Shown: one piece after another, positions 1 to 30,142 of the stretch
How the letters are laid out: the number at the start of each line of letters is the position of its first letter
How positions within the stretch are numbered: position 1 is the stretch's first letter
Virus record (IMG/VR): IMGVR_UViG_3300045988_043972
Coordinates: 1-64,000 of that record
DNA: 64,000 nt
Direction: 5' to 3' (one strand)
Source: a virus
Notes under the pieces: model-generated
Seen by the model: the letters and a program-made list of their open reading frames with translations, nothing else
The model's database searches: none
What the model was told of the DNA's origin: nothing
Translations under genes and position numbers: made by a program

Positions 1-123
1 ATCTGTATCAGTAATTACACGTACATTTTCCGCATATCTATACTGATTGTCTGGTATCATAGTTACATCTGTATCTAGATTCATACCACCAACGAAAGTA
101 TTTGTCTATAATGTATTAGTCAT
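1..123 (-). CDS. First 41 codons of a late/virion protein that runs off the window start
   Basis: ATG 123-121 overlaps the upstream stop (TAATG). Sequence MTNTL-TAG-TNTFVGGMNLDTDVTMIPDNQYRYAENV, with one in-frame TAG. Confidence 0.45.
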
Positions 124-1031
124 TATCTATTCCAATTATAAAGTATTTGTTCATCTCCTGTACTCTCAAAGAATGTATCATGATCTCTCATCTCAGTATA
201 AGGTTTGTGCCATACATTCTTAATAGTTTCTAATTCATCTACAGTAGGCATCATAGCTTCTGCATATGCCTATCTACGGTAGAAGTTCCATGAGTTTCTC
301 ATATCATAGTATATATTCTAATTCAGCTGTCCTTTTAAATATTTAGGATAAGACATCTTCATTGCTACATACCAGAATATAGCTTCAAAATATGATGGTA
401 TATCTGGTATCATGGGCATACTATCTTCATCAGTAGGTATAGCGTGATAAGATACTTTAACCCAACCACATGGTACATTAACTGTAATGTAACCCGGTTT
501 AGTAGAGTACTGTAGGCTAGTATTGAATGTAGCAGGATTACCTACTATAAGTCTACCATTGTTACTAGGTACAGTATACTGATTTACTAAAGCACTAAGT
601 GTTTGTTTAATGTTCTAATCACTGTTGAGTATCTCTAATGCATCCTTATCATTATCTAAGTTAAAGATATTCTTTACTAGTGGAAGTAAAGCATTATCTT
701 GTATCAACATCTTAGGATCACATTCTCCACACTTCTTATATATACCAAAAGAGTTAGTCACCTTTCTCATTGGTAACCAACCACAACTATTCTCAAATGA
801 GAATGCAACTTGATTTAATCTATACAGATCACACGGTAGTTTAGCTTGATAGTCACATATCTTCAGATTAGCTACTTTGTGTTCTAACTATTGAACAGCT
901 CCAATCTTTTCCATGGCTTCAGATATCCACTCTCGTATGTCCGTTATTTTAATATCGTCTTCTTTTAAATCCAAATCAGCTATAATCTTAGCAATAACTG
1001 CTTTGGATGATACCATATTATTATTTATCAT
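123..1031 (-). CDS. Hypothetical late/virion protein, 302 aa, TAG-recoded
   Basis: Frame is open from ATG 1031 to TAA 125-123 only if 4 in-frame TAG are sense; no in-frame TAA/TGA. N-terminus MINNNMVSSKAVIAKIIADLDLKEDD. Confidence 0.6.
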
Positions 1032-1695
1032 AATTATTATCTTTGTGATATTTCCATTTAAATCCGTACGCTGATTTGTATTTTCCCTAACAACATCTTT
1101 TTATAGATACTCTTTTGTTAATATTGCCCATATGTTTTGCAGCGTCTGCTATAGAATCATATGTGCACATATAAGTATTATCTAATGAGTACATATCTAT
1201 CTTTTTTCTCTGTGATGCAACAAGGGCACTGGTTTTCATCCATTCTGATTTTTTCTATAGACTTGACTCGCTCCACTGTCTGTTTTTATTACTATTAGCA
1301 ATTATCTACTTATGAGCCTCTGATATAGCGTGTCCACTATTGTGTATTCCAGTGGTTTTTCCTGCAACCTTACATATATTGTAGTCACCCAGTTCATCTA
1401 TATATTTCTATTCGATAAATAGCAAAGTATCCTTCACGTCTTCGCAAGTTTCTAATATCAAAAAACCGAAATGTTTCTATCCATATTTATTGAAAGCGCG
1501 CTATAATATAGTATTAGAATGTTTATTATTACATAGTTCATTGAAATGCTAACGGTATCTTCTTCTTATAGAGCTGCTAGATCCAATATATTTTTTATTG
1601 TTCAATAGATTAACTATAGCGTATACCCCAGATACGTCATCAAATTGGTACTATCCGTCCTACTTGAATTCAAATATATTATCGAATTTCAACAT
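1021..1695 (-). CDS. GIY-YIG family homing endonuclease with C-terminal NUMOD-like DNA-binding region (224 aa, 9 in-frame TAG)
   Basis: GVYAIVNLLNNKKYIGSSSSIRRRYRQH..NKYG block matches the GIY-YIG signature; C-terminus ..SAYGFKWKY. The 675-nt frame is open only with TAG as sense. Both ends overlap the neighbouring genes. Confidence 0.8.
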
Positions 1696-2122
1696 AATCG
1701 TGTTCTCTATTCTTAATTATCTATGCTAGCCTTCTCTTATTAGCTCTTGAAGCTACGAACTAATACTTTGTCTTATTAGTAAGTAGACAATCCTTCTTAC
1801 TCCACAGGAATCTAAACTTGTAGTAATTACTGTGTTCGTTAATAAAGTAAATAGGTTTACCTTGTATCTTACTTTCGTGATAATCTATTCTTAAGCTCTT
1901 GTTATCAAAGTTCTTAGGCTATCTCTTAACTATACTTAGATTACCTAGTCTACATGGAAGTTTAAACTCTCTGCTGTTATCCATAACTTCCTCTACTATA
2001 TACTTAAAGTAATCTTCAACTATATGTCTGTATGTTTTGTAATCAACATCATATACAGTTTCCCTTTCGATATAAGATAAGTAGAACTCATAGAAGTCGC
2101 TTATTGTATAAGATTTCTTCAT
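1679..2122 (-). CDS. Small basic protein, possible DNA-binding (147 aa, 3 TAG)
   Basis: Track ORF 1919..2122 continues in frame through 3 TAG to TAA 1681-1679. Lys/Arg-rich C-terminal half (..FVASRANKRRLAQIIKNREH). Function is only a guess. Confidence 0.5.
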
Positions 2123-2142
2123 TGCTATCTAACATTAATGTT

Positions 2143-2781
2143 CTACATATCATCTCTAGAGTTATTAGTTTCGTCTGATGGCATCTGATGCATGATATTC
2201 AATTCTTTAGTAAATATCATATCTTTGATTACAGGTATCATATGCGCAGGTGCAGGATATGGACTATCAGGATCAAAACATTCATTGATATCAGCAGGGT
2301 TCTCAGCTATTACTCCTATCTCTACCCATTCAAGCTGGTGATCATTACCCGGATCTTCTACATACAATCTATTGTTTTTGATGTATGCTATATAGTCTCC
2401 GCAAGTATATTTTCTATACTTTTGATATTTCATCTTTGTTTCATTACCTAGCTGAATTAGATTACCAAACATGTCTTTTACATATACTAGACCTGTTCTA
2501 AAATGAAAGTCTATCAGTTTAGGTAGTTCTATGTCACTTCTATATTCTATATGACCTGCTGTACTATCTATTCTATCAATGTGTACACATGGAATAGTTT
2601 GAACATACATAGGATTTATATCTCTACCCTTATCTATGTCCTGCTTGATGAGTACAGCTCTATAGTTGTGAATCCATTGCTCAATCTATATTCTACTTAT
2701 ATGTTCTGATTCAGCAACAGAACTATTGCGCAATTCAAGTAGAATATCATCAATAATAGTATTCAGTGTGTTTAATTTCAT
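2143..2781 (-). CDS. Hypothetical late protein, 212 aa (1 TAG)
   Basis: Track ORF 2143..2610 extends in frame across one TAG to ATG 2781 (MKLNTLNTIIDDILLELRNS..). Confidence 0.6.
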
Positions 2782-2894
2782 AATGCATTATTTATTAAAT
2801 ATCTTTATAACGTATTTAGATGCGTTCTAAGCCATTTTATAGGTGTAGTAGTACAATTGGTCAAGTAATATAATAGCGTTTGTCTAGAAGTCTT

Positions 2895-2924
2895 AAAATA
2901 AAAAAAGGCTAGTATTAACTAGCC
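2895..2924 (-). terminator. Rho-independent terminator
   Basis: On the minus strand GGCTAGT-TAAT-ACTAGCC is followed by TTTTTTTATTTT. The stop of the upstream gene lies in the loop. Confidence 0.6.
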
Positions 2925-3481
2925 TCATTCATTGCATTCTGTATATTCTATGGTAACATCTGTTTCATCTAAGGTGGAACCATATTACTTGCTTGCTTTA
3001 TTAATCCTTTTAATTCTGCAACTTGTTCTTGTAATTCTTTTATTCTAGGATCTTCTTGTTTCAAATTTTCCTCCTAATAATCCAACTACTTGAGTATTGC
3101 ATCGCACTTATTCATTTCTTCTTCATACTTAGCTAAAGCCTCCTTCTTTGCTTTGTATTCGTTATAATTATTCTTTACCATTGTTATTATCTGCTGTTTA
3201 TCTGTTGCAATAGTTAAACCTACAGTTCCATCCGTTATGATAGACTTATTTTCTTCTACAGATAATTTCTTCTATTCACCATCACACCCTATTGTTATAT
3301 CAACTAGTTTTTTTCTATTCTAATTTGGTAGAGGAAACTATTGAGGAGGAAGGGGTTCATCATAAACCTTGGATACATTCATTACAGTACCTTTATAATA
3401 AGTAGTACTTTTCTTGAACGTTCCGGTTATCTCTAATACATGTATAGGATCTCCTATATTTAATTGTGCAAATGTTATCAT
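2915..3481 (-). CDS. Coiled-coil late protein, 188 aa (7 TAG)
   Basis: Hand triplet scan from ATG 3481 to TAA 2917-2915 found 7 in-frame TAG and no TAA/TGA. The C-terminal half is K/E/Q-rich and heptad-like. Confidence 0.6.
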
Positions 3482-3498
3482 AATAAGTATTTATTAAA

Positions 3499-3520
3499 GG
3501 GCTCCTAAGAGCCCTTTTTT
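3499..3520. terminator. GC hairpin between late genes, possibly a bidirectional terminator
   Basis: GGGCTC-CTAA-GAGCCC with T6 on the plus side and TTTAATAAAT on the minus side. It lies directly after the stop of 3530..3964. Confidence 0.4.
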
Positions 3521-3529
3521 GATTAAAGA

Positions 3530-3964
3530 TTACGCAGTAGCAGTAGTAGGCGGTATAATATGGTTTACAGTTTGAAATATACCATTTGATTTATTATAGT
3601 AAATCAGATATCTATTGCCAGTGGATATTTCTTCTGTAGCCATTTGATCGCCTGAACCATTTATAAGAGCTCTAGCCCCTGTAGAAGTAGTAGTCGTAGG
3701 ACTTACTTGATTAGCTGTTCTAGTAGTATCTATACTTACTAAAGAAGCTGCAGTTACTGTTGCAGCAGGGGTATTTACTATATTAAGTAAAAACATTCCT
3801 TCACAAGGAAGTTGTCTCCAGATTCTAGGACAGATACCATAAGTAACAGTATTGTTGGTAGTATCAGTGGTAACATATATCGTTCTCAACGAAGGTATAC
3901 CAAAGTTATCTATAGTTCTTACTCTACTTCTGTTAAATGTATAAGGATTAAAATTAAAAAACAT
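3530..3964 (-). CDS. Thr/Asn-rich hypothetical protein, 144 aa
   Basis: ATG 3964 is preceded by AAGGAGG. The longer track ORF start (3997) overlaps the upstream gene. Confidence 0.6.
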   Translation of the reverse strand: MFFNFNPYTFNRSRVRTIDNFGIPSLRTIYVTTDTTNNTVTYGICPRIWRQLPCEGMFLLNIVNTPAATVTAASLVSIDTTRTANQVSPTTTTSTGARALINGSGDQMATEEISTGNRYLIYYNKSNGIFQTVNHIIPPTTATA

Positions 3965-3978
3965 ATTTACCTCCTTTC

Positions 3979-4842
3979 TTAGCATCCACAGCCACATCCA
4001 TCAGAGTAACCATTGTAACCATAGCCTGTAAAGCCACCATTACATCCATACGGGTTACAAGTCAGATATGCAGGAACCGGAGTAGGTCTTAACTGATTAA
4101 CAATGTTAGCGGTTTGAGCTTGCTGAGAAGCAGCTAAAGCCAACTGATTGTTTTCTTGACGCAATGAGTCAATCTTGTTCTGCATTTCACGCATTTCAAG
4201 TTGACAGAATCTGTCATTAATTATTTGAGTCTAAGCGTCTATTTTAGCACCCAAGATGTTGAACTGAGTATTAGCGTTGCTTGTCAGAGTATTAGTCTGA
4301 TTTACAATAGCTAATTGGCTCTCATAACCCTGAGTAGTTATAGCGTTACGTACATCACAGCAGCAAGAAGCCAATTGTGATGCAAGGCTAGCATTACCAC
4401 TCTGGATAGCATTGATTACTTGTGCGCCTGTCAATTTAGTATCACAAGCTATCTGGCTAACACTAGTATTAATAGTGTTCAGTGCATTCTGTACTGCATT
4501 AATATCACAATTCAAAGTATTGGACAAAGTAGCGATAGCTTCTTTGTTACCATTGATTGCTTGCATTAACAAGTTAGTATTAGCATCTGTGTTCAACTGA
4601 GAAGCAAGCTGTGAAGCTTCACCACTTCTGTTACCGAAGCCGTTGCCTCCCCAGCCACCCCAGCAGAAGAAGATCAGGATAATCCAGATCCACCACCATC
4701 CGCCGTTACCGCCGAATCCGCCATTGTTATTCATCATAGCCATCAAAGCAGCAGGGTCCATACCTTTATTTGCATTCTGCATTAAAGCAGCCAGACCAGC
4801 GTCAAAACCGCGGTCTTGAAGGATAATTTTATCTTCTAACAT
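3979..4842 (-). CDS. Membrane-anchored coiled-coil protein with Trp/Gly-rich TM segment and Cys/Gly-rich C-terminus (287 aa, 1 TAG)
   Basis: Track ORFs 4231..4842 and 3979..4194 are in frame and joined by TAG 4233-4231. Contains GGWWWIWIILIFFCWGGWGG and the C-terminus CNPYGCNGGFTGYGYNGYSDGCGCGC. Confidence 0.65.
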
Positions 4843-4874
4843 AATTGATTTTATTTAGGATTGATTTAATTTGA

Positions 4875-5480
4875 TTAATATCTAATATAACGTACAGAAC
4901 GACCGCGTTTGAGTTCATCTTCGTAAGGAAACATCTTTTCCTTCTCATAGTCTCTCTCATCGTATTCTCTGTCATATTCTCTACGTCTACCATATGAAGA
5001 TCTCCCCATTCTTCCACCTCTACGGTAAGTTCCATAGGGTTCGTCATCGTCATCATCTTCATCTTCATATTTGCTGTAGTTTCTATCGAAGTATTCTTCT
5101 TCTGCATCTCTCAGCTTATCGCACATTACATAAATATAATAGTACCACATTTTACCTTCATCAATGTCTTTGTCACATATCCAGGCTTTAGCTAACTCTA
5201 CGAAATACTTAGAGTTATTAGAACCTGTCATGTTAACAATTACTTTGTAGTAATCTGAGTAAACCATATTCAATGCAACATACCAATCATACTTATTGAA
5301 CTTGCTATCAAAGCGAATTCCGTATTGATTTGCAAGAGCAGAAGTTTCTTCTACAGACCAATGTTGGCCTCTAGATCCGTCTTCGTTTTCCATCTTACTT
5401 ACAGCTTTACGTGCATGTTCTTCATCAAAGTGAGGACCATGTTTAGCTTCATAAGCTTTTGTACGGATTATTCTATGCAT
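4875..5480 (-). CDS. Hypothetical protein with acidic then Arg/Tyr-rich tail, 201 aa
   Basis: Intact track ORF with no TAG. Tail reads EDEDDDDDEPYGTYRRGGRMGRSSYGRRREYDREYDERDYEKE. Confidence 0.7.
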   Translation of the reverse strand: MHRIIRTKAYEAKHGPHFDEEHARKAVSKMENEDGSRGQHWSVEETSALANQYGIRFDSKFNKYDWYVALNMVYSDYYKVIVNMTGSNNSKYFVELAKAWICDKDIDEGKMWYYYIYVMCDKLRDAEEEYFDRNYSKYEDEDDDDDEPYGTYRRGGRMGRSSYGRRREYDREYDERDYEKEKMFPYEDELKRGRSVRYIRY

Positions 5481-5510
5481 ATTATTATTGATTAATATTA
5501 TAGATTGATT

Positions 5511-6149
5511 TTATTTACTAATCTCTATTATTCTAGTATCTGTTACTTTGATAAGTTTGTTAGAGTTGTTAATCGTATATTTTCTGTGAATATCTTTTTT
5601 AAAATCAAAGTGGAAGAATCTGGCTAGCCACGTCTTATACTTATTACGATATTCTTTCTTTTCTTCTACAAACAGCGTTTGCTAGTTTTTTAAATCTAAT
5701 GTGGCTGTTAAGATTGAGTCTTTTCTACTTACTATGATAGTTGTTAAATCATTTAACTTTAATTCCTAAGTAAAGTCAACCTCTTTGGTTTTAATTACTG
5801 TTTTGACGGAATCTTTAACTTCGGTATTGATTACCTGTGCCTATACCAGATTCTTGTCTTTGATTTTTAATTTCTTTTTAGTATCGTTCAACTATTGTAC
5901 TATACTATCTCTACTAGTATTAAGATCAGATATAGTTAGTTGTAACGTTCGATTTTCTTTTCTACTTGAATCTAATAACGATTCATAATATTCACTATTA
6001 TTGGATAGTCTAGCTATTTCCTTGTCCTTCTTTTGTAGCTGCTTGTACATAAAAAAAGCACTTACCGACAGTATACATATGAAACCTATGGTAAGTGCTC
6101 TGAAATGTGTTGCAAGCCAGTTAACTACTGATATTATTGCTGTTATCAT
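5511..6149 (-). CDS. N-terminal TM plus coiled-coil protein, possible spanin-like lysis component (212 aa, 4 TAG)
   Basis: Track ORF 5892..6149 continues through TAG codons to TAA 5513-5511. A hydrophobic N-terminus is followed by a K/E/L-rich region. Confidence 0.5.
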
Positions 6150-6651
6150 TGTTATTTGGTTTAAAATCTTTTATATCTAAATCTACTCCTAGATACTTTT
6201 CACCTTTAGCTTTGATAACTTTGCCTAGTACTTTTTCTAATACTTTACATATTTTGCAATCCGGATGTAAGTCCTTCATTGATTCTAGCCAGGATATGAA
6301 TTCAGTTCCACATATCATACCAGATACAAACTCTACGGCATGTAAGTTCAATGAGGTAACTATATGAGTATCTATAACGTATGCTCCTACTATCAACAAT
6401 GTAGCTTCAAATACTTTATTAATAGTTTTCCATAACTTATAAGACTCGATATGTTTGTGTCCGTATTTCCTTGATACTTTGTAACCTAATATGACATCTA
6501 TCAGTATAAAACTAGTTGCCGCAATTATAGCTACCTAAACTGGTGCTAAGAAAGATGTTATTCCAGCAAAGCAACTGCTGGCGAATCTCCCTGCGCTACT
6601 GAATATACTTTTGAACAAAGTCATTATTGAATCTCCTATATCGTGAATCAT
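6121..6651 (-). CDS. Holin-like multi-TM protein (176 aa, 1 TAG)
   Basis: Track ORF 6121..6399 extends upstream across one TAG to ATG 6651 (alternative 6624). Several hydrophobic segments. Resemblance to phage holin families is from memory only. Confidence 0.5.
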
Positions 6652-6671
6652 AGCAAGTATTTTGAGAAAGT

Positions 6672-6701
6672 AAAAAACCCTGAGAGATTGCTCTGACAGG
6701 G
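6672..6701 (-). terminator. Rho-independent terminator after the RT gene
   Basis: Minus strand has CCCTGTCAGAG..CTCTCAGGG followed by TTTTTT. Confidence 0.6.
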
Positions 6702-6746
6702 ATGATATTTTATCTGAGATATACCTTAAAAACGTATGTTATTGCG

Positions 6747-7772
6747 TTAGGTTTTCTTCTTCTTACTTTTTGATATGTATCGCAATAGCTCTTTATGTTT
6801 AGTCATTTTACTAAATAAATTACGACCATTACAGTACTTAATCCAACCTATATAACTACATATTTTCTATTGATAAGTACTCTTGTCTAGGTTATCTTTT
6901 TTGTTCAATTTACTTACTCTTTTACAGAAATTCTTCTTAATATGTTTTCTTAATAGAGTGTGAGTATGAAATATCTTATACCCTACAAAATCTATTCCTC
7001 TATCGTCAACTTTAAATATTTGCCAGTTGTCTTTAAAGTTAATATTAAGTCTTTCTTCTAAGTACTACTTCATATCCTTAAATAACTATCTTAAATAGTC
7101 TTTGTCTCCATGAAGTATTACAATATCATCTGCGTATCTGAAATAGTATTTTATATGTTTTTCTTCTTTGATCCAGTGATCTAGATATGTTAAATATAGA
7201 TTAGCAAAGAATTGTGATAAGTAATTACCAATTGGTACTCCCTATGCAGAATCTATTATTTCATCTAATATAATTAATAATTTCTTATCTTTTACTTTTC
7301 TTCTTATTAGCTATTTTAATATATCATGATCTATTGAAGGATAAAATTTTCTGACATCTAACTTAAGACAGTATTTTGTATTGGCTTCATCTTTCAGTGC
7401 GAACTTAACATCTTTCAGAGCTTTATGTATACCACGATTTTTTATACAACTATAAGTTCCTTTAATGAAGGATGATACCCAAATAGGTTCCATAATATTC
7501 ATAATAGCATGATGTACTATTCTATCTGGATAGTATGGAAGCTTGAATATTTCTCTTTCTTTAGGTTCATATATCTTGAATATATAATATTCAGAAGTCT
7601 TATATTCACCATCTATTAATTTCTTCTATAGATCTAAAAGTAATTTTTCTCTATTCTTATCAAAATTAATTATTTCAGGTCTATGTTGTTTTTGTCTTCT
7701 AGCTCTTTTATCCGCTAGATATAAATTGTCTAAAGTTACTATTTTGTCAAATAAATTATTATATCTTTTCAT
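6747..7772 (-). CDS. DGR-type reverse transcriptase (341 aa, 6 in-frame TAG)
   Basis: Translation gives ..YEPKEREIFKLPYYPDRIVHHA.., SCIKNRGIHKA, LDVRKFYPSIDH, GVPIGNYLSQFFANLYL, YFRYADDIVIL, GIDFVGY. It lies immediately downstream of the TR. Confidence 0.9.
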
Positions 7773-7890
7773 CTGTAATCCATTACCGAGTTTTCACGAA
7801 AAAAGTTACTAACACAGTTAATTAGTATGTTATCTTTTACCAAGGGGTAAGGTCTCCCTCTACAGTCTCTTAATTTCTTTATTTGTTTAA

Positions 7891-8014
7891 TTACGGATTC
7901 AGTGTACTGACATTAGCATTAGCATTGCTGAGCTCATTGTTAGAATTAACATTGAGTAAGCCTGAATTAGCACTATTACTCGCATTACTGCTTAATGATG
8001 AGGAACAACCTATC
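7891..8014 (-). repeat. DGR template repeat (TR)
   Basis: Coding-sense TR is Asn-codon rich (AGC AGT AAT GCG AGT AAT AGT GCT AAT TCA GGC TTA CTC AAT GTT AAT TCT AAC AAT GAG ..). It aligns to VR1 and VR2 with differences only at its adenines. Confidence 0.85.
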
Positions 8015-8030
8015 TATATTTTTAATTAAA

Positions 8031-8159
8031 TTACGGTATATAGATTAACCGAGTACCGACATCAGCATAAGCAGCGCCGAGCCCACGGTGAGAATAAACA
8101 CTGAGCAAGCCCGAACCAGCACCACCACCCGCACTACCGCCTATTAATGTTAGCCTATC
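8031..8159 (-). repeat. DGR variable repeat VR1 (3' end of target gene 1)
   Basis: 8053-8143 aligns gap-free to 7904-7994. By hand I count 23 mismatches in 91 nt, all where the plus-strand TR has T (A in coding sense). Confidence 0.85.
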
Positions 8160-9272
8160 AGTTGTACTATTATTAGTCCAATTGTAGTCACACCAATAAG
8201 TTGTATTACTACCACCAAATGCTTCATCTATTGGAGGAAGTATGTCAAATGCTGCATTGTATACCAATTTCTTCTTATAACCTTCAGTAATAGCAGTACT
8301 ACATTGATAGTCATAATCAGATATATCAGTAGATCCAAATGTACTTAAGTCGGTATTTATATAAACGTCATTTTTATTAGTTTGTGCATTAAAATGCATA
8401 AGTGTGTCTATACAATTTTTCCATACATGACCAAATGGATTTTCAATACCTCTATAAGTAGGAACATTATAAGACTTCTGAGTTGCAACACCTTCTGCAT
8501 CAGTACTATTAACAGTAACAGAAGTTATACCAGTAGAGTTTCCATGTTCGTCTGTACTTCCACAAGGTATAAAACTCCATGTATCAACTCCATTTACTTT
8601 AATATTACCTGTAGTAACTCCATCTCCTAAGCCTCCTTGATGATATCCTTCTGCAGTTAATTCGGCATTGAAAGCTTTCTAACTGTTGGTACATGCATAT
8701 TCAACTAAGTAAAGCACAGTAAGTATTCTATGAGCTCTGTAAGTATACATGTTCCAATTCGTAGTACTGGAGTTATTAGCCCTAGCTCTAGATTGCATAG
8801 TAGTTCTATTAATGTTTACTACTGGAGTGATAGATCCATTGTTAATAGATTTTAACACATTGTCTACATTAGATGCTTCATATGCAGAAATATAGAACTT
8901 CTCCACATGTTCAGCTTCTGGAATATGAGGATTTGCTGGATATAAGTTCAAATATACAGTAGTATCATCTCTCATACATTTATACCAGAACTCTGGTATT
9001 TCTACCATAGTATTTAATGTCATGTCTCTATCAGTACCATCTTCATACTTGGTTCTATCTGTAGCATTAAGATATTTAACTGTTCCATCAGAAGTAATCG
9101 TGCAAGACTTCATCTTAGAATGTATAGGAAGTTCTTTATGCCAAGGCATATACCCGGTTCTAGTCAATAATGTACTCTACGGTTCTATAGGAAAGCTAAC
9201 TCCATAATAGTTAGTAAATACATTAACATCGCCAAGATATGCAGCTACAATATTTTTATCTCCTAATTTCAT
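8031..9272 (-). CDS. DGR target 1: tail-associated variable protein (413 aa, 2 TAG)
   Basis: Track ORFs 8679..9167 and 8031..8399 are in frame with ATG 9272. The C-terminus ..YNWTNNSTTDRLTLIGGSAGGGAGSGLLSVYSHRGLGAAYADVGTRLIYIP is encoded by VR1. Confidence 0.85.
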
Positions 9273-9273
9273 A

Positions 9274-9804
9274 TTATTCGTGAATTAAATATAGTGTTTT
9301 AGAATCTTTAACAGACAAAGTGTCATATTCTGTCTAAGTCATAGATACTACAGTAGATACTTCATCAGATGTTACACAGTGACTCAAGTCTACTGTTTCA
9401 GATAACTTATCCCATTCAGCAGGACTAGCTACAATACATACATAGTTAGCACCAGTATCTGTTAGATTATATACGTCTCCAACTACAGCTGTAGCAGGTA
9501 GTGCTTCGAAATTAGCTACAGAACCTTTCACTCTATATACAGATGCTACTTTAGCATCTACTTGTTCCTTAGTATATGCATCCTGAATACCATAACCAGA
9601 CAAAGTAGTAGCTTTATTTGCTTTATTAGCTAGTTCTTTGTTAATAGATTCAATTAGATCATTATCAGTAATAGTACTCCATTCAGATCCAGTCCATGCT
9701 TTAATACATCTACCATATGGATCAGTTTGTAAGTCTATCCAATACTGTACTTCTTTGTGATTGGGGGTTGACTTACTAGGTACGAAATTTATAGTTTCTC
9801 TCAT
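9274..9804 (-). CDS. Tail-fibre-like protein, 176 aa (1 TAG)
   Basis: Track ORF 9334..9804, then TAG, then 19 codons to TAA 9276-9274, ending just before the next ATG. Confidence 0.55.
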
Positions 9805-10076
9805 AGTTGTTCTTCTTTATTAGTCCATTTATCACTGCTTAACAATTTCTGTAATTCTTCTCCTTCATAGGTAGGATACGGATATACTACTTCCGGAGTT
9901 TCATCTTCTTCTGTTAAAGGTAATGTCATTGCTGATGGAAATAGTAATTCATAGTTAGCAACTTTCATGATTACTTCAGTTCCATCTACACTATAACGAA
10001 ATACTAAATGCATTTCGTCTAGCGTATCTTGTGTTATATCAATCAGCACTTCGGCTGGTACAACAATATATTTCAT
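9801..10076 (-). CDS. Hypothetical protein, 91 aa
   Basis: Intact track ORF. Both ends overlap the neighbouring genes by 4 nt. Confidence 0.6.
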   Translation of the reverse strand: MKYIVVPAEVLIDITQDTLDEMHLVFRYSVDGTEVIMKVANYELLFPSAMTLPLTEEDETPEVVYPYPTYEGEELQKLLSSDKWTNKEEQL

Positions 10077-13000
10077 TCTTGTATAAATATTGGGTTAGTT
10101 AAATCAATTATTTCATCCTTTTCCATCAGGTTCTTTAGGAAGTTAATCTGTAATAACGGTATGGTTTTAGGATATAGAACTAATTTGTATAATACTATCG
10201 ACTTGTAGTTACTGCTCCAGTGTCCAATATCCAACCCGTTTTCGTCAGTATTAGAACCTACTGTTAAAGCACTACCGTTATAAGATGTTTTAGTTCCATA
10301 TATAATTGTATTTTCATTTAGTGGCAATAATGTAGGATTACCATAAGAATACTGTTGACTCCCATTTGATGCTATATAGTCAACAATAAAAGCACCACCT
10401 CCGACTTTATTACCTTTATACATTGTAGCACTATTAACATTATTATTTAAGTTCTCACGCTTAATTACATAGGTATAATCCGTCAACGCTGGAATATTAG
10501 TATTTACTGAATAATCCTCTACTCCATCATATACTAGACCATTTTCATATTCAGGAAGAACTTTAATAGTAATATCACTTAAAAAATTGGTAACTCCTTC
10601 TTCAATTGGACTTATTGAAAAACCTACCACAGCATTATTAATCAAAGCCTCTGTCGGAAGGAATGATTTGGGTAGTTCATGAGTACCATTCTCAAGATAT
10701 AGATTTGTTTCCTTAGTCGCATCGCTTGTTGCTAAATACTTATATATAAATTTAGACCTACCTTCTAACCCTTTAATTTCAATCTTAAAAGGAGGTATTT
10801 CTTTTATATTTTGAAGATTACCATTATATTTAACATAAGAATACAATAAAGCTAAACCTGCATTTAGAACATTAGTAATATGAATAGTATTACTAGTAAT
10901 ACTAGTAACATATCCGTTAGATTCATTCGCCCAAGTTTTATTAGCACCAAATACAACAGGATAACCATTATATCCACTCATACCTTCGTAAGTATGATTA
11001 TAATTAGTTAAATCATAATCACCTATGGCTACACCTCTTTGTTGAATAGTTGCCTTATCTGCATCGAAATTGGTTTTACCATAAGTGTCCCAATAATAAG
11101 GAGGAAGCTCTACTTTAGGTTCAATACCTATGTACTTGTTCAGGTTGAGTATCTCTTCGTCAGTTGAGATGTTGTCGAAGAGCATGAAGTCATAGAGAGC
11201 TAAACTACCATAGTTAGTATTCATATACGACTTGCCAATAATAGGATTGATATTACCTGTTGCGTAAGAAGTATCTAATATTTCTACAATATTATGAGTA
11301 ACGTTTCTTAATTGACTAGCAATAATATATTCATTTCTAATACCATCAATATATGTAGTACCAGCAGCATTTCTTCCTCTATAAGCAGAAACTCTAATAG
11401 GATCACTTGGGTTATTATAATCAGAACAATATATTGCAAAACCTCCACTACCTCTTTGGTCATATATAATACTATTAATGGTATTCCAATTCACCTTCAT
11501 CAACATCTGTTTACCTCCATTAGACAAAGTAGGAATAGTAACAAAGTCGTCTACGCCATCAAATTGATATGAACCATCTTCATTAACTCCACTTCCTTCC
11601 GCATAAGCAGAATTGTTTATCTTACCATGATTACCGTGACCTGATATATCAGGAATATAACCCAATATCTTATAGCTAGAATTTGGAATACGTAGTAGTC
11701 TAGGAGATAGAATACATTTAGGTTCATTATCATCAATTGACCAAATAGGGCTATTTGTCCAAGCAAATATCATCTCTTTAGCAACAGTAATATATTGATT
11801 ATTATCATATACATATACACCGTTGCACTCTAATTGACCCTTTAAAGTATAAGCTCCTTCTAATAGGTTTACAGATGAATTATACCTGATAGTATCTCCT
11901 ACTTTTAGCTTATCTCCCCAAGTATAAGTATAAGTTCTATCTAGGTTTTCTAACTTAACGAAACTTGGATACGGTTGCACAATATCCTCGTATCTAATGT
12001 ACTCGTCAACAGTGATGTTTATCTTTTGAGGAGACTTAGTAATTGGAAGAGTTACGTAATAAAATCCATTACTATTAATCTTAAGATTGGTATATTCAGT
12101 ACCGTTTACAACTATCTTAGTTACTTCATCTGCGTCTTTTGGTTTTACATAGATACCGATAGTACTATCCTTTTTTAAATAAATACCTGTTTTATCATCA
12201 TTAATAGCAGGTCTATATAATGATTTATCTCCTTGCCATATTTCTATTATATTCCATTTAACATTACTCTTCACTATCGGTCTAAACTCCACCATATCCG
12301 GATACAGCGTACCCAGCTTATGCTTCTTCAACTGACGCTCTATCAAGAACTCGGACATACTATAAGGGAAGGACATGAGAGAGTAGATAGCACCGTTAAA
12401 GAATCTTTGGTCATTGTCTCTAAATGTTCCTAGCCAAAGAGTATCACTATCAACTCCTTCGCCTACTGTTAAATCAACATCTCCACATTTATATTTACTT
12501 TGATATAACAAAGCTCTTGTAAAATCATCTCTATTAAATGAAGTAACTCCTCCAAAAGAATAAACCTGTTTACCCGGTTCAACTTCTGTATTAGCTGTCA
12601 TTAAAATAAAAGCTCCTTGATTAGCTACATGAGATTTAGATACAACACCAGCTACCCATCTTTCAGATGAAGCATAACTTATTCTCTCATAGTCTATAAT
12701 GAAAGTATAATCCTTGTAAATCGGCATTCCTGTCACCTTACCGAAGTCATTTACTCCGTCAAGGCATAGACCACCTGCGTGGGAAGGAATTTGGGTGATG
12801 GTTATATCACAAGAAGCATTATAAACGTTCTCTCCACCAAAACGTATATCTATACTTGTAGTATCATCGGGTGGAGTCATAGTGTATATACCATCTTCCT
12901 TTATTGAATGAAAATCAACAGTGTTTGCTCTATTTACTCTAATTTCTACTGACAAGCCATAACTCTTATACAGTTCTGTCACTCCTTTAAAGTCAGCCGA

Positions 13001-14194
13001 ATAAGTACCATTGATAGAATCATAATAAACAATACGAGCGTATTTATTCCCTTGTGTAACATTAACTTTCCAGTTAGGATAATTATACTTACCTATACCA
13101 CTATCTCCGTCCCAAGCAATATTGTTCAACTGAATATCCCTACCGTTGCCGGAATAGTCTATCAGCTTGTCGCCAAACTTTGCGTGGTTCTCGTTGGTGA
13201 TGCCCTGCTTCTCGATATTACACAGTATATCAGGTTTAAGAGTTCTATCCAAGTTGAAGTAAGCGATTACTTGGTTGATTTGGTCGGTAGTCAGTACCTT
13301 GTTGGCGATGATTGTCCAGTACCAAGCGACAGAGCTAAAATCACCAGTATTATTACCGTCATTATACGAATATCCTTGAACGCTAAAATTGCCATTGATT
13401 ATGGAGTCTCTATTGTCGCCATTAGACGTATAATCATTCTTATCACCTAATATATTATTTACAACTGACAAACCCTTTAAGTCAGAAGAAGTATATCCAT
13501 ATATTCCAGTCTTGTCGTAGTTATTCACGATATTACGGAAATAGCCATTGGCACTACCTCTTATATAATTGGTAAAAGATACATTATTAGCTGAATCTTT
13601 AACTTGATGAACCATACTCACCACCGTAATCTCATTACTTTCTCCCAGCATCTCCTGTACGGTCTTGGTGGAAGTAATCAGGTCGTCGATTCCATCGGTG
13701 ACGAAGGCACCATAGTAAGGACTACCTTTATCTGCGTAGCCACTTCCTTCGGTGTAAGCTGCGTTACTAATCACAAACGGATTGTCAGGGTCCACCAAGT
13801 TCTTGACTATAGCTCTATCAGAATCATTATTAGTCTTATTGCCAACTATAACTACAGCTTTAAGAGAGGCTAATACTTCTGGATCTATATAAGGAAGATC
13901 TGATTCCATATTACCAATCTTCCACTCTCCTAAGACACATGAACCTACTTTAGTGAATAGACTAATACGTATCCACGTATTCTTAAATTCACTTAGGTCT
14001 ATAGAATCTGTATTAGTATAGGTTCTTTTTAAAGTAGTATCTCCATATGCTATTACCTTTACTTCAATTGTACCTATATAGTTAGCTGGTTCCGCAGTAG
14101 ACTCATTGTCTGGTTGCAGATACCTAGTTAGCCTTGGAAATACATAGTATGCCTAAGGATTAATGAATATAGGATTATATAAAATTGTTTTCAT
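10073..14194 (-). CDS. 1373-aa tail/receptor-binding-type protein with four LamG/ConA-like modules
   Basis: Track ORF 10073..13909 (1278 aa, no TAG) extends 95 codons upstream in frame (one TAG) to ATG 14194, which is preceded by GAGGAGG. Four modules begin DG[IV][DNE]D[LFY] (FVTDGIDDL, LCLDGVNDF, YQFDGVDDF, LVYDGVEDY). Confidence 0.75.
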
Positions 14195-14211
14195 CTGTAT
14201 CCTCCTCTGTA

Positions 14212-14673
14212 TTACTTAATAGTAATAGTAATCTCTTCTCCATTCTCTACTGCTCCTTGCATCTTATCATATAATGCTTTAAACGTCACAGTACTTTCTG
14301 TTACTTTACCAACTACATTATTTTTTCCTACTAATAAGCACCCATCTGTATCCTCCTCTGTATTACCGATGTGAATTAGTATACCATCGAAACCAGGTGT
14401 ATCTAATAGTCTAGGTAATTTACCATTACAGAATTTGTATTGTTTATATTTACTAAACTTGGGAGATACAATATCTAAAGTAACTTTATATGTACCAGTA
14501 GGTATAGCAGTCTTACCATATACTTTGGCTTTCTATATATCCTCTATCGACATATCTTGTGTAAGTCCCCTATCCGTATCTTCAAGAACATTGCAGAACT
14601 TAACGCCATCTATATACATATTACTTATAGTATATGTACTTCTTTTTGCTATTCTTTCTGATATTATATGCAT
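14212..14673 (-). CDS. DUF5675-like protein, possibly cell-wall-active (153 aa, 1 TAG)
   Basis: ..GKTAIPTGTYKVTLDIVSPKF..LPRLLDTPGFDGILIHIGNTEEDTDGCLLVGKN.. resembles the DUF5675 signature as I remember it. Frame runs from ATG 14673 to TAA 14214-14212. Confidence 0.5.
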
Positions 14674-14927
14674 AATTTCAATAATAATATTATACCTACT
14701 TGAATTGCTTGACCTATAGTACCACCAATTATAGTAGCTATCCAATCTAACCAATCCCATTTACCACCATACATTTTATCTTTAAACTCCATACCTGATG
14801 CTAGACCAGCTACGAATAGTATGGTGAACAGAGCACCTGGTACTATTGCGTACTTCAGGTGCTTCATTCTATTACTCTCTTTTAACCATTTAATTTGCAT
14901 ATCTTGTAGTTCTAGGTTGAGCGTCAT
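14664..14927 (-). CDS. Small membrane protein (start uncertain)
   Basis: Track ORF with hydrophobic segments AIVPGALFTILFVAGLASG and IATIIGGTIGQAIQVGIILLL. Internal ATGs at about 14900 and 14866 are alternative starts. Confidence 0.5.
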   Translation of the reverse strand: MTLNLELQDMQIKWLKESNRMKHLKYAIVPGALFTILFVAGLASGMEFKDKMYGGKWDWLDWIATIIGGTIGQAIQVGIILLLKLCI

Positions 14928-15075
14928 AAACTATGCTGCCAAGTAAGTCAGCAGCCAAGTTCATGCCAAATTGTTTATCGTCATTATCTATTTCGTTTAC
15001 CTTGACTAATACATACTACAACATAGTATATATGCCTTCCAATAACTCTCTGTCAGTTAATAACTTCACATCCAT
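14890..15075 (-). CDS. Small protein, 61 aa (1 TAG)
   Basis: ATG 15075 lies 1 nt after the TAA of the giant gene. Frame is open to TAA 14892-14890 with one TAG. Confidence 0.35.
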
Positions 15076-15076
15076 A

Positions 15077-18000
15077 TTAATCCCTCATATTAGTTGCCCA
15101 TTGTTCTGGTATACTGCTACTATTAGTGATAAGACTCTTACTCATGTAAGCAAATACATTTTGTTTATTCGTATTAGTAAGATTATTTAACCATGTCCAG
15201 AATTCTGGCACAGAACCTGTTGTGGAAGTATCTCCATAGAATAAACCTGTTACATTCGTAAGATTCTTGTGTTTAGATTGAGTAAACAGATTTGATCCTA
15301 TCTTCTTAGGTCCTTGTCCCATCCATCCTCCAGTAGAACTGGTACTAGCTAATGCGTATGATATATTCTGTAATATGTAGTTATACTAGAATGTAGTATC
15401 ACTTAACTGTTGAACATCATCAGCAGAACCTTGGAATGTAGCATCGTAGAATAAATAAGATATATCTGTAAGAGCCAAGTTCTTACTAAGTAAAGTAGAA
15501 GGTATAACTACTTTTGTAGGTATATATATTCCACGGAATAGTCCTGAAACGCTTTTTAATGCAGTATTGTTAGATAACATATCAGAAGGAAACATCTGTC
15601 CATTATTACTATCATCATTCCAAGTATACGGATTAATGCAATAACAATACGCAAACACATTAGTTAAACTGGATATGTTAGTAAGAGTTTTGAATATTCT
15701 ATTTGGTATTCTACCATATATACCATAATTATATCTTTGTACTCCATGATCAGTTTTTCTACCACTACTTGTAAGAGCATTTGATATGTTAGTATTAGTA
15801 TTGTTGACGCAATATTTAAATAGATCTGACGGAACTATGTAATTCATACTATCTAATCTATTCTATCCAGCAGGACTAAGAGGATATCGCATATCGTCTT
15901 CATTGAAGAATTCTGATGGTATATTAGGATCAATATCTGTTATAACACCAGATTGTATGTTCTGATACAAAGTGCTATTCTATATCAAATCCCCTAGACC
16001 ATATACTCCATCATAGTAATCAATATTCCATATTTTCTTGTAAGGACTATAGTTTGGATTCTTTATTACTCTATGTATATCCTTATTGGGATTATCAATA
16101 TATTCTGGAGTAGAACCAGGATTATTAGGATCATACACTGGATTAGGTATTTGATCTCTCGGGTCATACGCAGTATTTACTATGAATTCTGAAACATTGT
16201 AATTCTCATTAGTTATTATCAAATCTCCTGCGTCTTCAACAGTATTTAATTCTACTTGTTTTCTGATGTATCCTTCCGCATTAGGGCTAGAGAAATTTGC
16301 TAATACATACCGCATATCAGTTATACTACTTCTAACAGCTTTTATTGATTCACTGTAATCAATAGTTTGTGGAAGTACTGCACCAGGATCATGTTCTCCT
16401 TCTTCAGTTATACCAAAGTTTTCAGTTATTCCTAGTCTAAGTGCATCTGCATGACTCCAACCAGTAGAAGATCTTACTACATCTCTTTCCATATAAAACA
16501 AACCATATGGAACTCCTCCTTCTTTTGTATAACTGTTTGAATCTTCATAGAATGCATACGCAACATTTGTAAGTTTACAATTAGTAAATCCCTTACCTGT
16601 TAACTTATACTTTACTGATTGATTTCTAAAACAACCTGTTATCTGTACTAGATTTGAACAGTCCTAGAAAATGGTTCCTGGTAGTTCATATACTACACCA
16701 CTGGAATTAGGAATAGTTATGTTAGCAAAGAAACATGGGCACGCAATTAGATTGACAACTCCTTTAAACACATCATAAGGATATGTTTCATCAGACTCTC
16801 TAACAAATACTCTATTTATACCAGCACCATGAAAACATGTAGCAGCCTAATCCGGAATCTGATTAGTATCTTCTGTATTACCTATGTATTGTAAAGTAAG
16901 TTTAATCTATCTAAACATGCTATTGTGTATAGGGAAATACACCTTGTCTCCATCATTAGAAGTTATATAGAAACATCCTAATAATTTAGTTATTTGCCTA
17001 GAGAATAAATTACTACTATCAAATGCTGAATTACCACCAAATAGATTAATCAATGAACCTTTAGCTTTGATATTTCTGAAACTCCAACTAACTACTCTTA
17101 GTTTGTTATTATAAGCAAACAACGGACTATATGTTACACTATCGTCGGTACTTTCTGTGTCGAAATTAAACCAACAACCATTAAACATATTAGATATAGT
17201 GTCTAGATTGGGAAGATCCCTTAATAATTTAGATGCTCTAGCATATGCTCTTCGTCCCTCTGCTACTTCTGTTGAAGTTAAAGTTTCATCACAGTTATCT
17301 ACAAATACTACATTACTACCACCGTAATTGAACATACTAGACAGATGCGCTAATTGTAAATATTGATTATTGCCTATCTATGCAAAGAATAAATCATCTA
17401 TATAGAAATTGCCAGCAGTAGTTTCGAACATACTATTGCAAGATACTAACTTCTTCAAAGGACTTAATAAACCATTGTATTCAATGATTGTATCTCCAGT
17501 GTGAGTAGGACTATACATAGGACCTGTCAGTCTAGTAGCATAGAAGGCATGCTAAGCATTAGTAACATTACCACAATATTTAAAGGTGTCTCTACTTAGA
17601 GGATTACTAAAATCTGTAATTACATTTGAACAAGAATGAAATATAGAAACAATGTTTTCGACATCATCACACATATTCAATATATAATACACATCATATA
17701 TGTTTACTTTAGTTCCTACAAAGCAGCTACTTAAATTAGTAGTACCTATGGATATATTAGTCTCTAATCCTTGATTGTTATCCCACTATTCCTAGCCTTC
17801 TGTAGTATCTGTATCTGGACCGTACCATTGCCCTCTAGTTGGTTTAATAGTAACGTCTTCTAGTACATCGTGTATAAAGAAGTTAGGGCAAGTATTGAAT
17901 ACACTTCCTGATGTTAGTTTTATGTGTCCGAATACTCTGGTTAAACTAGAACAGTTATTAAAAGTAGAACTATTAACTGCAAAAGGATTTGTTTTACTAT

Positions 18001-21000
18001 TCTTGAATTTTACATACTTAGAACTATTATAGTACATATACAGATTAGTAAAGGTAAATGGACTAAGATCTAGTATTCTTTCACCTGTAGATGTAGTAGC
18101 TACAGGATCATTTCCAAATTGGAATGCATTAATGTTACTTGAAGCAATATTTAATACCTTCAATTTATTGAATCCTGGTGCAAATTCAATTACATCAGTA
18201 GTATTTGTATTATCTAGATTCAGTTCTTCAAGATTAGGAGCTCCTACTAAACTAATACTTAAGTTAGCATTATTGCAATTAGATAGTGTTACAGATTTAA
18301 GTGCATTGGCATTTGATACATTAAATGTGGCTAACTTATTACAGTTAGGTGCATAAATTCTTTCAAGCTTAGCACAACCAATAATATTGATACTAGTTAA
18401 GTCACTCAAATTACGTAAGTCTAATTCCGTTATCTAGTTACAATTACTTACTTCTACGGATTGTAGTTTATTACACCCTGTAAAATCAATTTTACTAATA
18501 AAAGGTTGGTCAGCTAGAGTTACCCTTTCTATAGCAGAATTTGTTAAAGTAAGAGTAGATAATGCGGCATTAGGCAGTGCCAGTGAAGTTACACATCCAT
18601 TTGATATATCTATTGTCTTTAGTTTGTTATAGTTCTATATGTCTACTGGAAATGAGTTAACACCACTGTTTCCTGACCAAAAACTAGTGTTAGACAAATT
18701 AATATGTCTAATATCTGAAACACTCTTGCCATCCTATCTCTTAACGAATATAGTAGCAAAGTCAATAGGATTAGATGATAGTGTACTAGTATTCTATATA
18801 TCTATTTCAGACATACTAGGTAATGACATAGAAGTCATGAAACCCTAGAAACGTATTACATCTAGTCCCTTCATATTACTAATCTCTGACATGTTGTTAA
18901 CAGTGATCTGAGTATTAAATGATGAAAGAGATGGCAAGTAGATATCTGTATCTACATTCTCTTCAACATAATACCTAGTCTCACTACCAGCAGCATTACC
19001 AATGTTCACAGTAAGTATAGCAGGACTGTTCATCTTAACGGTTAGCTTAGAGTTGTTAGTCTAAGCACCACCACACTTGAATGAACCTTTTTCATTATAT
19101 GGATAGATGACATTATTGTTAGCAAACAAGAATACACCATCCATAAACGTTAGACGCTTCTTCAACCAATCTCTAACAAAGTCATTACGAGTACCGTGCA
19201 AGAACTCTACGTTCGCGTATGAAGCTGGACTATCATCATCTTTCTGATACTTAGTCAGATACTTAACACGATAGTCATAGTTGTATAGAAGCTCACCACA
19301 GTCTTTAGTTTGAGAACTGAAGTAATTCTCTACGAACATAGAAGAACTCGTTAGAAGCGAGCTATTCGTTCTCCAGAGATCCCATAGACCATTGTAATCA
19401 CTACCAGAATATACACCAGTACTTATGAATCTACTATCTCTAAGTACATCCCATAATCTACTAGAGTATTCATCATACCCGTTGTTAGGATCATTCTGTT
19501 TAATGATTAACGAGTTAACACCTGTAGTAGTATCTGCATTACTAAATCCATCAATGTATGCTGTCTTAGCTACATTCTCCTCACCAGTATTACTTAGACC
19601 ATTGGCTGTATCCATATCGTAGAAACAAGGATACCATTTGTTCATGTTAGGGTCTGTAGTAGATCCACCTACATTCCATGAACGTAATACCATGTTCTTA
19701 CCTAATGAGTCTACTAGACCGAACACTACGCATATCATAAAGTATGAATACGCATTACGTATACTCAATCTTAAAGTAAGATCATCAGCTAATGCTGACC
19801 ATGATTGCTGTGCAGGGTATGTAGCTCCAGTCTTTTCATAACCTTTGTTGATAGTATTCCACCTATACTTATCTATCTCTTCACCAGTCATACCAGCTAG
19901 AGTAGTAAATAGTAACTGTAGTCTCTACCATATATTGTTATCGGTTACAGCTGTAGCATCCTAAGTAGCACCATTAAACTTGAACTCTCCTACGTGTTGG
20001 ATAACAGTTAAGTCATCCTGCATGAACAATGCAGTGGGTTGTATACCTTCGGCTGTCTCGATGATATTCGCGTTATCACCAAACTCATATGAGTATATCT
20101 ACTGTTGATTGATACTACCAAAATTCTCATTTACTTTATATGCTTCATACTTAGTTATGAATGCTGGAAGTGGTTGATCAACGTACTCACCTGTTACATT
20201 CTTAATCTTAGTAGTAAAGTTCTTTAAGAACTTCATACCCATATTATAGTATGCTGCACGACCTAAATTGAATGAGTAGATACCCAACATCTCTTGAGTA
20301 CTAGTACCATCAAACTGGATAAGTAATATTACAGGAAAACCTTCTAGTGTATGCTTGATAGTTACATCAGTATGAGTCTAACTTGGAGTGATAGAGTCTA
20401 CAGGACGTCTAGCTTCAAGTTCCTACATAGGTGGTGTCTTATCAAACAACACATCTGCATTATCATTAATCCACTTACCTATAGAAGCATTGTTAGCATG
20501 AGCACTGTCTACTACGTCAGCTTTCAAAGTAAACTGATTCTCTGGCATCCATGTAGACTTAGGTTGGAATAACTCTGGTCCAATAGTTTTACCTTCATCG
20601 TCAGTAATTACTTTGTTAAATGCTATCTCTAAGTTCTTACTTCTATAACCAGTAGATGATGTACCCTGTATCTGTATAGACATTTCTGTAGTAGATACAG
20701 CTGAACCACTTGATGAATCTGGATCGAAATAACTGAATGTACAACCATTGTACATAGTAGTATTAGGACCAATAGCTTCATATACTGCTTTAGTAAAACC
20801 AGAGTTAGAACAGTTTATATATACTACAGGCAACGGTGGTTTCCTATTAACATCACCAATCAAACTATTAAAGTTTAACTTCGCGTATGTACCAGTTGAA
20901 TCATCCCATAGAGTTGATGAACTACTATTCTCTGTAATACTAAAGAAGTTCTTCAGTTTAAGGTTGTTATACTCTACGAAGTCTACTGAACCTGTGCTAG

Positions 21001-26000: not shown

Positions 26001-26397
26001 TCTGTAAATCTTCATTTACATATTCAGGAATTGATTTCTCGGAGTCATCTGCCCATATGTCATTAGTATCTAAAGGCGGAGTATCTGATATAACAATGTT
26101 AGTACCTCCATCACCACTCCCGCCTTGCACTACTGACCAACCTCTACTATTATTTCTATTTTCCCAGCTGATTAATTGGTAATAAGCCTATGAACTCTGT
26201 ACAAACCACCTCTAACCTATAGCATCATTATTAGTGTTATCTTTACTTTCGCTAAGTATAGAATCAGAAATAGTATACAGATCACTAGTAGTAAAAACCT
26301 ATTTATGCCCAGAAACCTATGTCGCATTAACTGCCCCATAGGCTTTAGGGTTATTACTACCAATCTTCGACGGGAATGTGATTATACTCTCTGTCAT
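23017..26397 (-). CDS. 1126-aa tail protein with a metallophosphoesterase-like domain (10 TAG)
   Basis: Joins track ORFs 23017..24240, 24310..24957 and 25162..25782 up to ATG 26397. Ordered motifs VSDQ, GDMTQNG, GNND, GGHKH. ATGA overlaps at both ends. Confidence 0.8.
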
Positions 26398-27416
26398 TTA
26401 AAGTTTAGTTTAGCATTAGTAAATGCTCCTGGATTAGCAGAAGTATATACTCTCATTGTTAATTTAAGTCCTGTATCAGTTGTGAATGATTCTTCACTAT
26501 AGTTAAATGCTTGTGTAACATTATAAGCATCATTCTAAGTAATAGTAGTCAGCTTAGGAAAATTACTAGGATATTTGTACACAAAATATTCACTGCCACT
26601 GGTGGTTATGTTAGATATAGTTATGTTGTTAGAAGAAACTAATTGTTTATTCATATCACCTTCTACTCCATAATAAGCAGGATATAGGAATGTAATTTTA
26701 CTATTCACTGTTTCTTCGTCATCTCCAGTAGCTGGTACTAACTGTCCATCTACTACTTCATAACCAGTCTTAGGAGCTTTAAGTGTTACATAGTAATTAG
26801 CATTAGATAATGTTTCCATCTCTACTGTAGGAGATTGTATTCCATCTTCTGTTAATTCACTAAATACATTACTTTCCATAGTTTCAGGATCTTTATAATT
26901 TTTCTTTGATTGCCACATATAGTTACCACTCCATTTATAGGTATCCCCTATTTCAGTATTAATGTTTAGTGAGTTACTAGTATTACCAGTTCTTTTATTA
27001 GTCCACTATACTGTCATGATTGGTTTAACTAGAGGAGTGTTTGTTTCCATTTCTCCTCCACCTCCGCCTGTAACTTCACTCCATTTAGCATTCTGTCTAG
27101 CATACTACTTACCATCAATCGGAGCTTCTTCTATACCTCCTCCTAATTGGAATAGGTTGTATATTACTCTACCGTGTAAACATTCAGGTTCTGTATAAGG
27201 AGTGAACAAATTACATATAGTAGTAAATCCTAGTGGAATGTCGGTCCCTATCTGTCTTTCGCAATGACAGATCATAGCTTTCAACATCTACCGATCTTGA
27301 ACGAAATCTACTTTACTAAGTAAAGATGTTAGTTCATTTACACAGATAGATGCTAAAACATCTCTGTAATTTATTTTAACAGAATATCTCAATTGCTTAT
27401 CTATCGCATTTTTCAT
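26394..27416 (-). CDS. Hypothetical tail-module protein, 340 aa (4 TAG)
   Basis: Frame runs from ATG 27416 (TAATG overlap) to TGA 26396-26394. Joins track ORFs 27105..27287 and 26535..26918. Confidence 0.65.
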
Positions 27417-30136: not shown

Positions 30137-30142
30137 ATATCT

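Follow-up and report, generated by a model that had tools for sequence, protein, structure and literature searches.

The diversity-generating retroelement (DGR) of phage BPP-1 consists of a variable repeat (VR) within the target gene mtd, the accessory gene avd, a template repeat (TR), a spacer, and the reverse transcriptase (RT) gene brt, in this order. A layout that lacks avd, and in which target gene, VR, TR, and RT follow one another directly, was reported for crAssphage LMMB and other genus I alpha crAss-like phages (Morozova et al., 2020, PMC7290462); these DGRs reside in the structural gene cluster and have a tail protein as target. The same layout, the same kind of gene neighborhood, and the same type of target were found in the viral DNA analyzed here, a stretch of 64,000 nucleotides that comprises positions 1 to 64,000 of the IMG/VR record IMGVR_UViG_3300045988_043972 (hereafter "the window"). 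The window belongs to a gut crAss-like phage that shares, across the DGR cassette, approximately 92% nucleotide identity with cr60_1 (NC_055891.1; Buchavirus hominis, Suoliviridae, Crassvirales). We are highly confident that it carries a functional, avd-less DGR of a Buchavirus-like member of the Suoliviridae in which TAG is recoded to glutamine.

Like BPP-1, the window features adenine-specific differences between TR and VR, has a VR placed at the C-terminal end of a tail protein, and carries a structured RNA that separates the TR from the RT. Unlike in BPP-1, however, avd is absent, the TR follows straight after the target gene, and the TR uses AAT rather than AAC codons. Moreover, the window possesses neither a GC-rich initiation of mutagenic homing (IMH) site nor a strong hairpin, its RT needs suppression of TAG codons, and a second target is located far from the cassette. 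Whereas the phages described by Morozova et al. belong to the Intestiviridae, the window represents the Suoliviridae, and the available parts of their paper mention neither a second target nor recoding. DGRs have also been described in the epsilon and zeta groups of crAss-like phages, and the zeta paper notes a similarity of the RT to Suoliviridae proteins; apart from this remark, literature searches turned up no paper that explicitly describes a DGR of Suoliviridae or Buchavirus. The record of cr60_1 lists an RT and a tail protein (gp38/gp39) in the same order as in the window. There, the RT is labeled 'Intron reverse transcriptase', the ortholog of the second target (gp86) is labeled 'hypothetical protein', and no TR, VR, or RNA features are listed. 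Since avd-less DGRs of crAss-like phages are known and gut phages commonly carry DGRs that vary tail proteins, the cassette as such contributes little to the current picture. An earlier inspection of the letters alone (the sequence-only reading) had interpreted the cassette correctly in every part that was tested. Of greater interest are features that it had not noticed, namely the recoding of the RT gene, the structured RNA of the RT-17 type, a second target at a remote site, and a rule that governs the fate of TR adenines followed by G (ApG).

The whole cassette is encoded on the minus strand and consists of target gene 1, a 36-nt spacer, the TR, a 129-nt spacer, the RT gene, and a hairpin. 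Target gene 1 (8031..9272) contains two in-frame TAG codons and codes for a 413-aa tail protein (phrog_5302 'tail protein', 1e-72), of which residues 377-408 are specified by VR1 (8051..8143). The TR (7902..7994) is 93 nt long and has, in the frame of VR1, 10 AAY codons (Y denoting C or T). In an ungapped alignment at an offset of 149, TR (7994..7902) and VR1 (8143..8051) differ at 24 of 93 positions, and each of these 24 positions is an adenine in the TR (18 A>G, 3 A>T, and 3 A>C; hypergeometric P 9.7e-16 for 32 adenines in the 93-nt TR). The pair is only about 74% identical and was missed by a generic direct-repeat finder, but was recovered by a custom diagonal scan. The sequence-only reading had counted 23 mismatches over 91 positions (8053-8143), all at TR adenines, which is essentially the computed result, and had correctly placed VR1 at the 3' end of a 413-aa gene in the tail module. 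It had also recognized the TR itself, but the limits that it proposed (7891..8014) overshot the repeat by 10-20 nt at either end; outside 7902..7994, non-adenine mismatches start at once.

A second VR was located by a window scan that used the non-adenine positions of the TR. VR2 (55157..55219, plus strand) pairs with the 3' two-thirds of the TR (7966..7904) and differs from it at 16 of 63 positions, again exclusively at TR adenines (16/16; P 1.3e-11). It lies 47 kb from the cassette on the opposite strand and encodes residues 76-97 of a 135-aa protein, the product of target gene 2 (54930..55337, plus strand), which is situated among small hypothetical genes. Both VRs are thus contained in protein-coding targets, VR1 near the C-terminus of the long protein and VR2 internally in the short one. 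In 21 genomes for which both loci were fetched, VR2 tracks the TR of its own genome, with 302 mismatches at adenines vs. 45 at other positions. We propose that one TR serves two VRs, one in the C-terminus of the adjacent tail protein and one in the remote small protein. After priming of reverse transcription and homing, steps that we infer, the cDNA would replace the homologous VR, and ten AAY codons in VR1 and seven in VR2 would be randomized.

The final 10 nt of the repeats read GTCGGTACT in every copy of VR1 and VR2 and GTCAGTACA in the TR. The two differences both concern adenines, and past these 10 nt the sequences of TR, VR1, and VR2 part ways. The constant 10 nt of the VRs probably delimit the transferred information on its 3' side and represent a candidate pair of IMH/IMH*-like elements. 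Just 3' of VR1, an AT-rich 8-bp inverted repeat (ATCTATAT/ATATAGAT; 8012..8045, 18-nt loop) spans the stop codon of target gene 1 and is a weak candidate for a target-recognition hairpin. According to a gapped alignment of the 3' flanks, this inverted repeat is absent beside the TR owing to a 7-nt indel.

Under the standard code (table 11), the open reading frames (ORFs) of both the RT and target 1 are broken, and the longest RT fragments comprise only 48 and 63 aa. One could therefore regard the cassette as a dead remnant, in which TAG stops have cut the RT (six) and target 1 (two) and the differences between TR and VR are a fossil of past activity. This view would be in line with the 'burnt-out' appearance of an A-poor TR locus in three of 80 related loci, which were fetched and compared out of 357 relatives obtained from IMG/VR with the RT as query. 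It would also agree with the apparent lack of the RT in the phages cr109_1 and cr113_1, where the RT query remained uncovered and no RT feature is listed under the matches. However, TAG read-through opens both ORFs, and in-frame TAG occurs throughout the 45-kb late block on the minus strand (123..45152). This block consists of continuous long ORFs with up to 31 in-frame TAG each (31 in a single 2647-aa gene), and these ORFs are never interrupted by TAA or TGA. In-frame TAG is almost absent from the plus-strand block 50400..62100. The sole tRNA found in the window by ARAGORN (45171..45261, minus strand) has the anticodon CUA and would be the cognate suppressor required for translation of the RT and target 1. 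In the 80 RT relatives, the TAG columns pair mainly with glutamine, and four columns hold only Q, TAG, and an occasional H. The hallmark Q of the catalytic SQ motif is encoded by TAG in 42 of these relatives and is Q in the other 38. TAG positions vary among the relatives, and the full-length RT ORF is preserved in 75 recoded ones. As, in addition, genomes with identical TRs carry different VRs, a dead remnant is very improbable. The phage instead appears to be a TAG-to-Gln recoded (code 15) crAss-like phage, consistent with the TAG-to-Gln recoding of late genes reported for crAss-like phages of ~105 kb (Borges et al., bioRxiv 10.1101/2021.08.26.457843).

With six TAG codons in its gene, the RT presumably can be produced only once the CUA suppressor tRNA is active. 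Because of this need for TAG suppression, the DGR most likely acts late in infection, on genomes that have already been replicated. An RT with recoded stops would couple mutagenic homing to the late stage of infection, in which recoding operates, and makes a connection between code switching and hypermutation amenable to testing.

The layout found in the window is shared by approximately 70 of the 80 related loci, with 19-28 mismatches at adenines and 0-1 others. Among close relatives, the TR is nearly invariant while the VRs differ, and the variation is restricted to the AAY codons, which are NNT in the VRs. For example, one TR is common to 11 loci that have 10 distinct VRs, and near-identical genomes differ in VR1 at TR-adenine codons only. 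In protein databases, both targets appear as long lists of near-singleton 90% clusters, whose members vary at only 10 residues in target 1 and at only 7 in target 2. These patterns point to ongoing diversification at the level of the lineage. Tail-tip genes of crAss-like phages are known diversity hot spots (PMC10136315), and the VR diversity might also be ascribed to recombination or to ordinary positive selection on the tip of the tail fiber, with no part played by reverse transcription. However, only codons for which the genome's own TR has AAY are seen to vary, TR positions other than adenines are copied exactly, and the same TR is tracked by VR2 even though the two target genes are unrelated. 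We give this explanation hardly any credence.

The RT (6747..7772, minus strand) has a length of 341 aa if the six in-frame TAG are read as Gln. It contains LDVRKFYPSIDH, PIGNYLSQFFANLYL, RYADD, and PIGNYLSQ..ANLYL, and the motifs named in the sequence-only reading (LDVRKFYPSIDH, PIGNYLSQ..ANLYL, and YADD) had been identified correctly. The SQ motif is a hallmark of DGR RTs, and PIGNYLSQ has the form [I/V/L]GxxxSQ of the DGR clade. The RT matches RVT_1 alone in Pfam (5e-17) and phrog_1423 among phage protein families (4e-121). Its best relative of solved structure is 8ub7_A, a 328-aa reverse transcriptase that we take to be the bRT of the Bordetella phage. The homology extends over the full length (E 3e-51), compared to 2e-20 for group II RTs and 2e-19 for retron-type RTs, so that the grouping anticipated from the letters was borne out. 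R74, I181, and S186-Q187 of 8ub7_A are conserved in the window RT; the first two presumably are the residues of bRT that have been linked to adenine mutagenesis. Taken together, the sequence comparisons support an assignment to the DGR-type RTs. That the enzyme is a group II intron, retron, or defense RT, with a TR/VR similarity that reflects ordinary duplication of the tail gene's 3' end, as might be suggested by the best NCBIfam models (group II RT/maturase, TIGR04416, 2e-32; Drt3a; retron RT, NF038233; no DGR model was returned from this library) and by the RefSeq note on the cr60_1 ortholog, has a negligible probability, because the NCBIfam scores are all far below the cut-offs (112.6 vs. 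300, 68 vs. 200, and 55.7 vs. 235, respectively), 8ub7_A with its SQ motif leads the relatives of solved structure by 30 orders of magnitude, 24/24 (VR1) and 16/16 (VR2) mismatches are at adenines, and the RNA beside the RT is an RT-17 motif instead of intron domains or msr/msd. Consistently, Rfam searches gave RT-17/18 upstream of the RT and nothing downstream, with no group II intron RNA domains, and detected no retron RNA family near the RT at E up to 1.

Several observations speak against a functional DGR or against individual elements of this interpretation. The RT of BPP-1 requires Avd, whereas no accessory protein (Avd or HRDC) was found for the window RT. The stop of target 1 (8031) and the start of the RT (7772) leave no space for an avd gene between them, as had been noted from the letters, and no Avd-type family emerged at E<0.006 when 47 small ORFs in the window (TAG=Q) were compared to Pfam; the families returned were crAss tail ring proteins, holin, a sigma factor, and nucleases of the GIY-YIG and HNH types. 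Yet an accessory protein is not universal, and about a quarter of DGRs, including those of crAss-like phages, are devoid of one (PMC7290462). Furthermore, the suppressor tRNA folds with a long variable arm (class II-like), which is atypical for tRNA-Gln. The hairpin after VR1 is no more stable upon folding than shuffled sequence (z +0.24), and VR2 is accompanied by an imperfect palindrome only; the target-recognition signals at VR1 and VR2 are candidates and not established. A C-type lectin fold of target 1 is putative and suggested by the annotation of the cr60_1 ortholog ('tail protein; similar to sulfatase, major tropism determinant'), and neither target 1 nor a distant ortholog matched any Pfam or PDB entry in profile and single-sequence searches. 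Finally, it is the relatives from which activity of the DGR in this particular genome is deduced.

The spacer between TR and RT (7854..7766, minus strand) matches the Rfam motif RT-17 (RF03020) with 40.8 bits, compared to a gathering threshold of 40.4 (E 1e-5), and RT-18 (RF03021) with 39.2 bits. Its predicted pairing is conserved in 21 distinct relatives, where 82.5% of cells are paired vs. at most 44% if the partners are slid. Compensatory changes were observed at 10 pairs, and the best-supported part is the stem at columns 71-78/97-104 together with its inner hairpin. Helix 58-61/106-109 of the RT-18 model is unsupported in this lineage (53.6% paired). The RT-17 and RT-18 motifs were described as being located directly upstream of RT genes, like the window spacer; the TR-RT spacer of BPP-1 was assigned to RT-10, and a role of the other RT motifs in DGRs was only speculated upon (Weinberg et al., 2017, PMC5737381). 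The window locus is a clear instance of RT-17 between a verified TR and the corresponding RT.

The natural VRs of the relatives show how adenine mutagenesis depends on sequence context in vivo, which complements the recent laboratory map obtained for the BPP-1 RT. In 65 distinct VRs, a TR adenine followed by G had become G in 376 of 397 cases (~95%), and a TR adenine followed by C was mostly G or A. At AAT codons, the adenines were randomized, with T 159, C 97, G 165, and A 107 at position 1 and A 239, G 90, T 74, and C 125 at position 2. At ApG sites, A and G alternate among the TRs of the relatives, and the same rule holds in three distant elements (L075, L079, and L123). Selection for glycine at the protein level is ruled out as the cause, because TR adenines at four-fold degenerate third positions (TCA, GCA, ACA, and GGA) also correspond to G in 65 of 69 cases. 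The data suggest a strong effect of the 3' neighbor on misincorporation by the RT, and TR adenines may fall into two classes, 'randomized' (AAY) and 'silent' (ApG). For the BPP-1 RT, the 3' neighbor dominates the error profile, and transient slippage with re-use of the previously copied base was proposed (PMC12875486); this model would predict a change of ApG to GpG. An alternative explanation of the ApG-to-G rule is heteroduplex repair of single G·T mismatches, which would restore the parental G. In the three relatives with A-poor TRs mentioned above (L004, L006, and L027), the TR locus, approximately 220 nt upstream of the RT start, is very G-rich and has non-adenine changes (T to G) too, and the TR-specific 3' flank ACACTGAATCCGTAA is kept. 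These TRs either were overwritten by mutagenized cDNA ('burnt-out') or reflect an assembly or sequencing artifact.

One TR with two functionally different targets is known from the tentaclins of gut phages (Baykov et al., 2023, PMC10743442). In contrast to the tentaclins, the second target in the window is a protein of only 135 aa with no detectable lectin/Ig similarity, is encoded 47 kb away from the RT, and resides in a TAG-free block, which probably is the early block. Remote targets are beyond the detection of the survey by Roux et al., as stated by its authors. Target 2 had no Pfam or PDB sequence match, no signal peptide was seen by eye, and in BLASTP its similarity to target 1 was confined to the VR-encoded stretch. 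A full HMMER search (50% representatives) revealed a family of 252 small proteins with the motifs EDAC..LG, ALNEGW.P.W, KYYPWF, and VGSRLCFK..ELA.YAG.QF. AlphaFold2 models reached a pLDDT of only 51 with a shallow alignment of relatives of at least 93% identity, and a pLDDT of 85.7 (pTM 0.80) with a deep alignment built from the 50% representatives; in the latter model, the VR forms a beta-hairpin. Foldseek comparisons of this model yielded no fold match in PDB (best E 3.3) and only uncharacterized gut-phage proteins in BFVD.

Members of the same family occur directly next to RT genes elsewhere. Two contigs from unrelated gut phages each carry a tandem pair of target 2 family genes (L075:1533-2458; L123:6001-6882). 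In both contigs, a TR and a homologous RT follow the pair directly, and each of these genes bears an adenine-only VR. In L123 they lie among replication genes, with genes for DNA polymerase III alpha, DnaB, and a methylase around them. Given these RT-adjacent members with adenine-only VRs, the target 2 family is a recurrent DGR target. This small uncharacterized family would extend the DGR targets of lytic phages beyond receptor-binding proteins. Instead of being a receptor-binding tail protein, target 2 could be diversified for binding to factors of the host, for instance defense proteins. The combined proposal that target 2 represents a new, intracellular-looking class of DGR variable proteins, that ApG is read near-deterministically as G, and that the RT is gated by the code switch is tentative, and we consider it somewhat unlikely to hold in all of its parts. 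In cr109_1 (NC_055892.1) and cr113_1 (NC_055896.1), the flanks and the target 2 region match the window and the RT part of the query is uncovered. The BFVD entry of the cr113_1 protein that matches target 2 has 85 aa only. This distribution suggests that the DGR may have been lost, and its target may have decayed, in some lineages.

Additional features were identified around the cassette. The terminator that the sequence-only reading had announced downstream of the RT was recovered by folding as a hairpin followed by U6, but at 6701..6672 and thus outside the segment 6747-9272 to which it had been assigned. This terminator-like hairpin (6672..6701, minus strand) is composed of CCCUG..CAGGG with an inner AGA/UCU stem and begins 46 nt past the RT stop codon; an 81-nt segment containing it folds with -12.2 kcal/mol (z -1.75). 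A rule-based terminator scan, which required loops of 3-8 nt, had missed it. Just upstream of target 1, a 176-aa ORF (9274..9804, minus strand) contains a C-terminal Phage_tail_C domain (Pfam 'phage tail tip domain', E 5e-11), which fits a tail-tip location of target 1. A 48-aa ORF on the opposite strand at the TR (7883..8029, plus strand) most likely is spurious. Among the small ORFs, Pfam gave one GIY-YIG and one HNH_3 match, which were assigned by motif reading to 1021..1695 and 44595..45152 (both minus strand); these ORFs of the late block possibly encode homing endonucleases.

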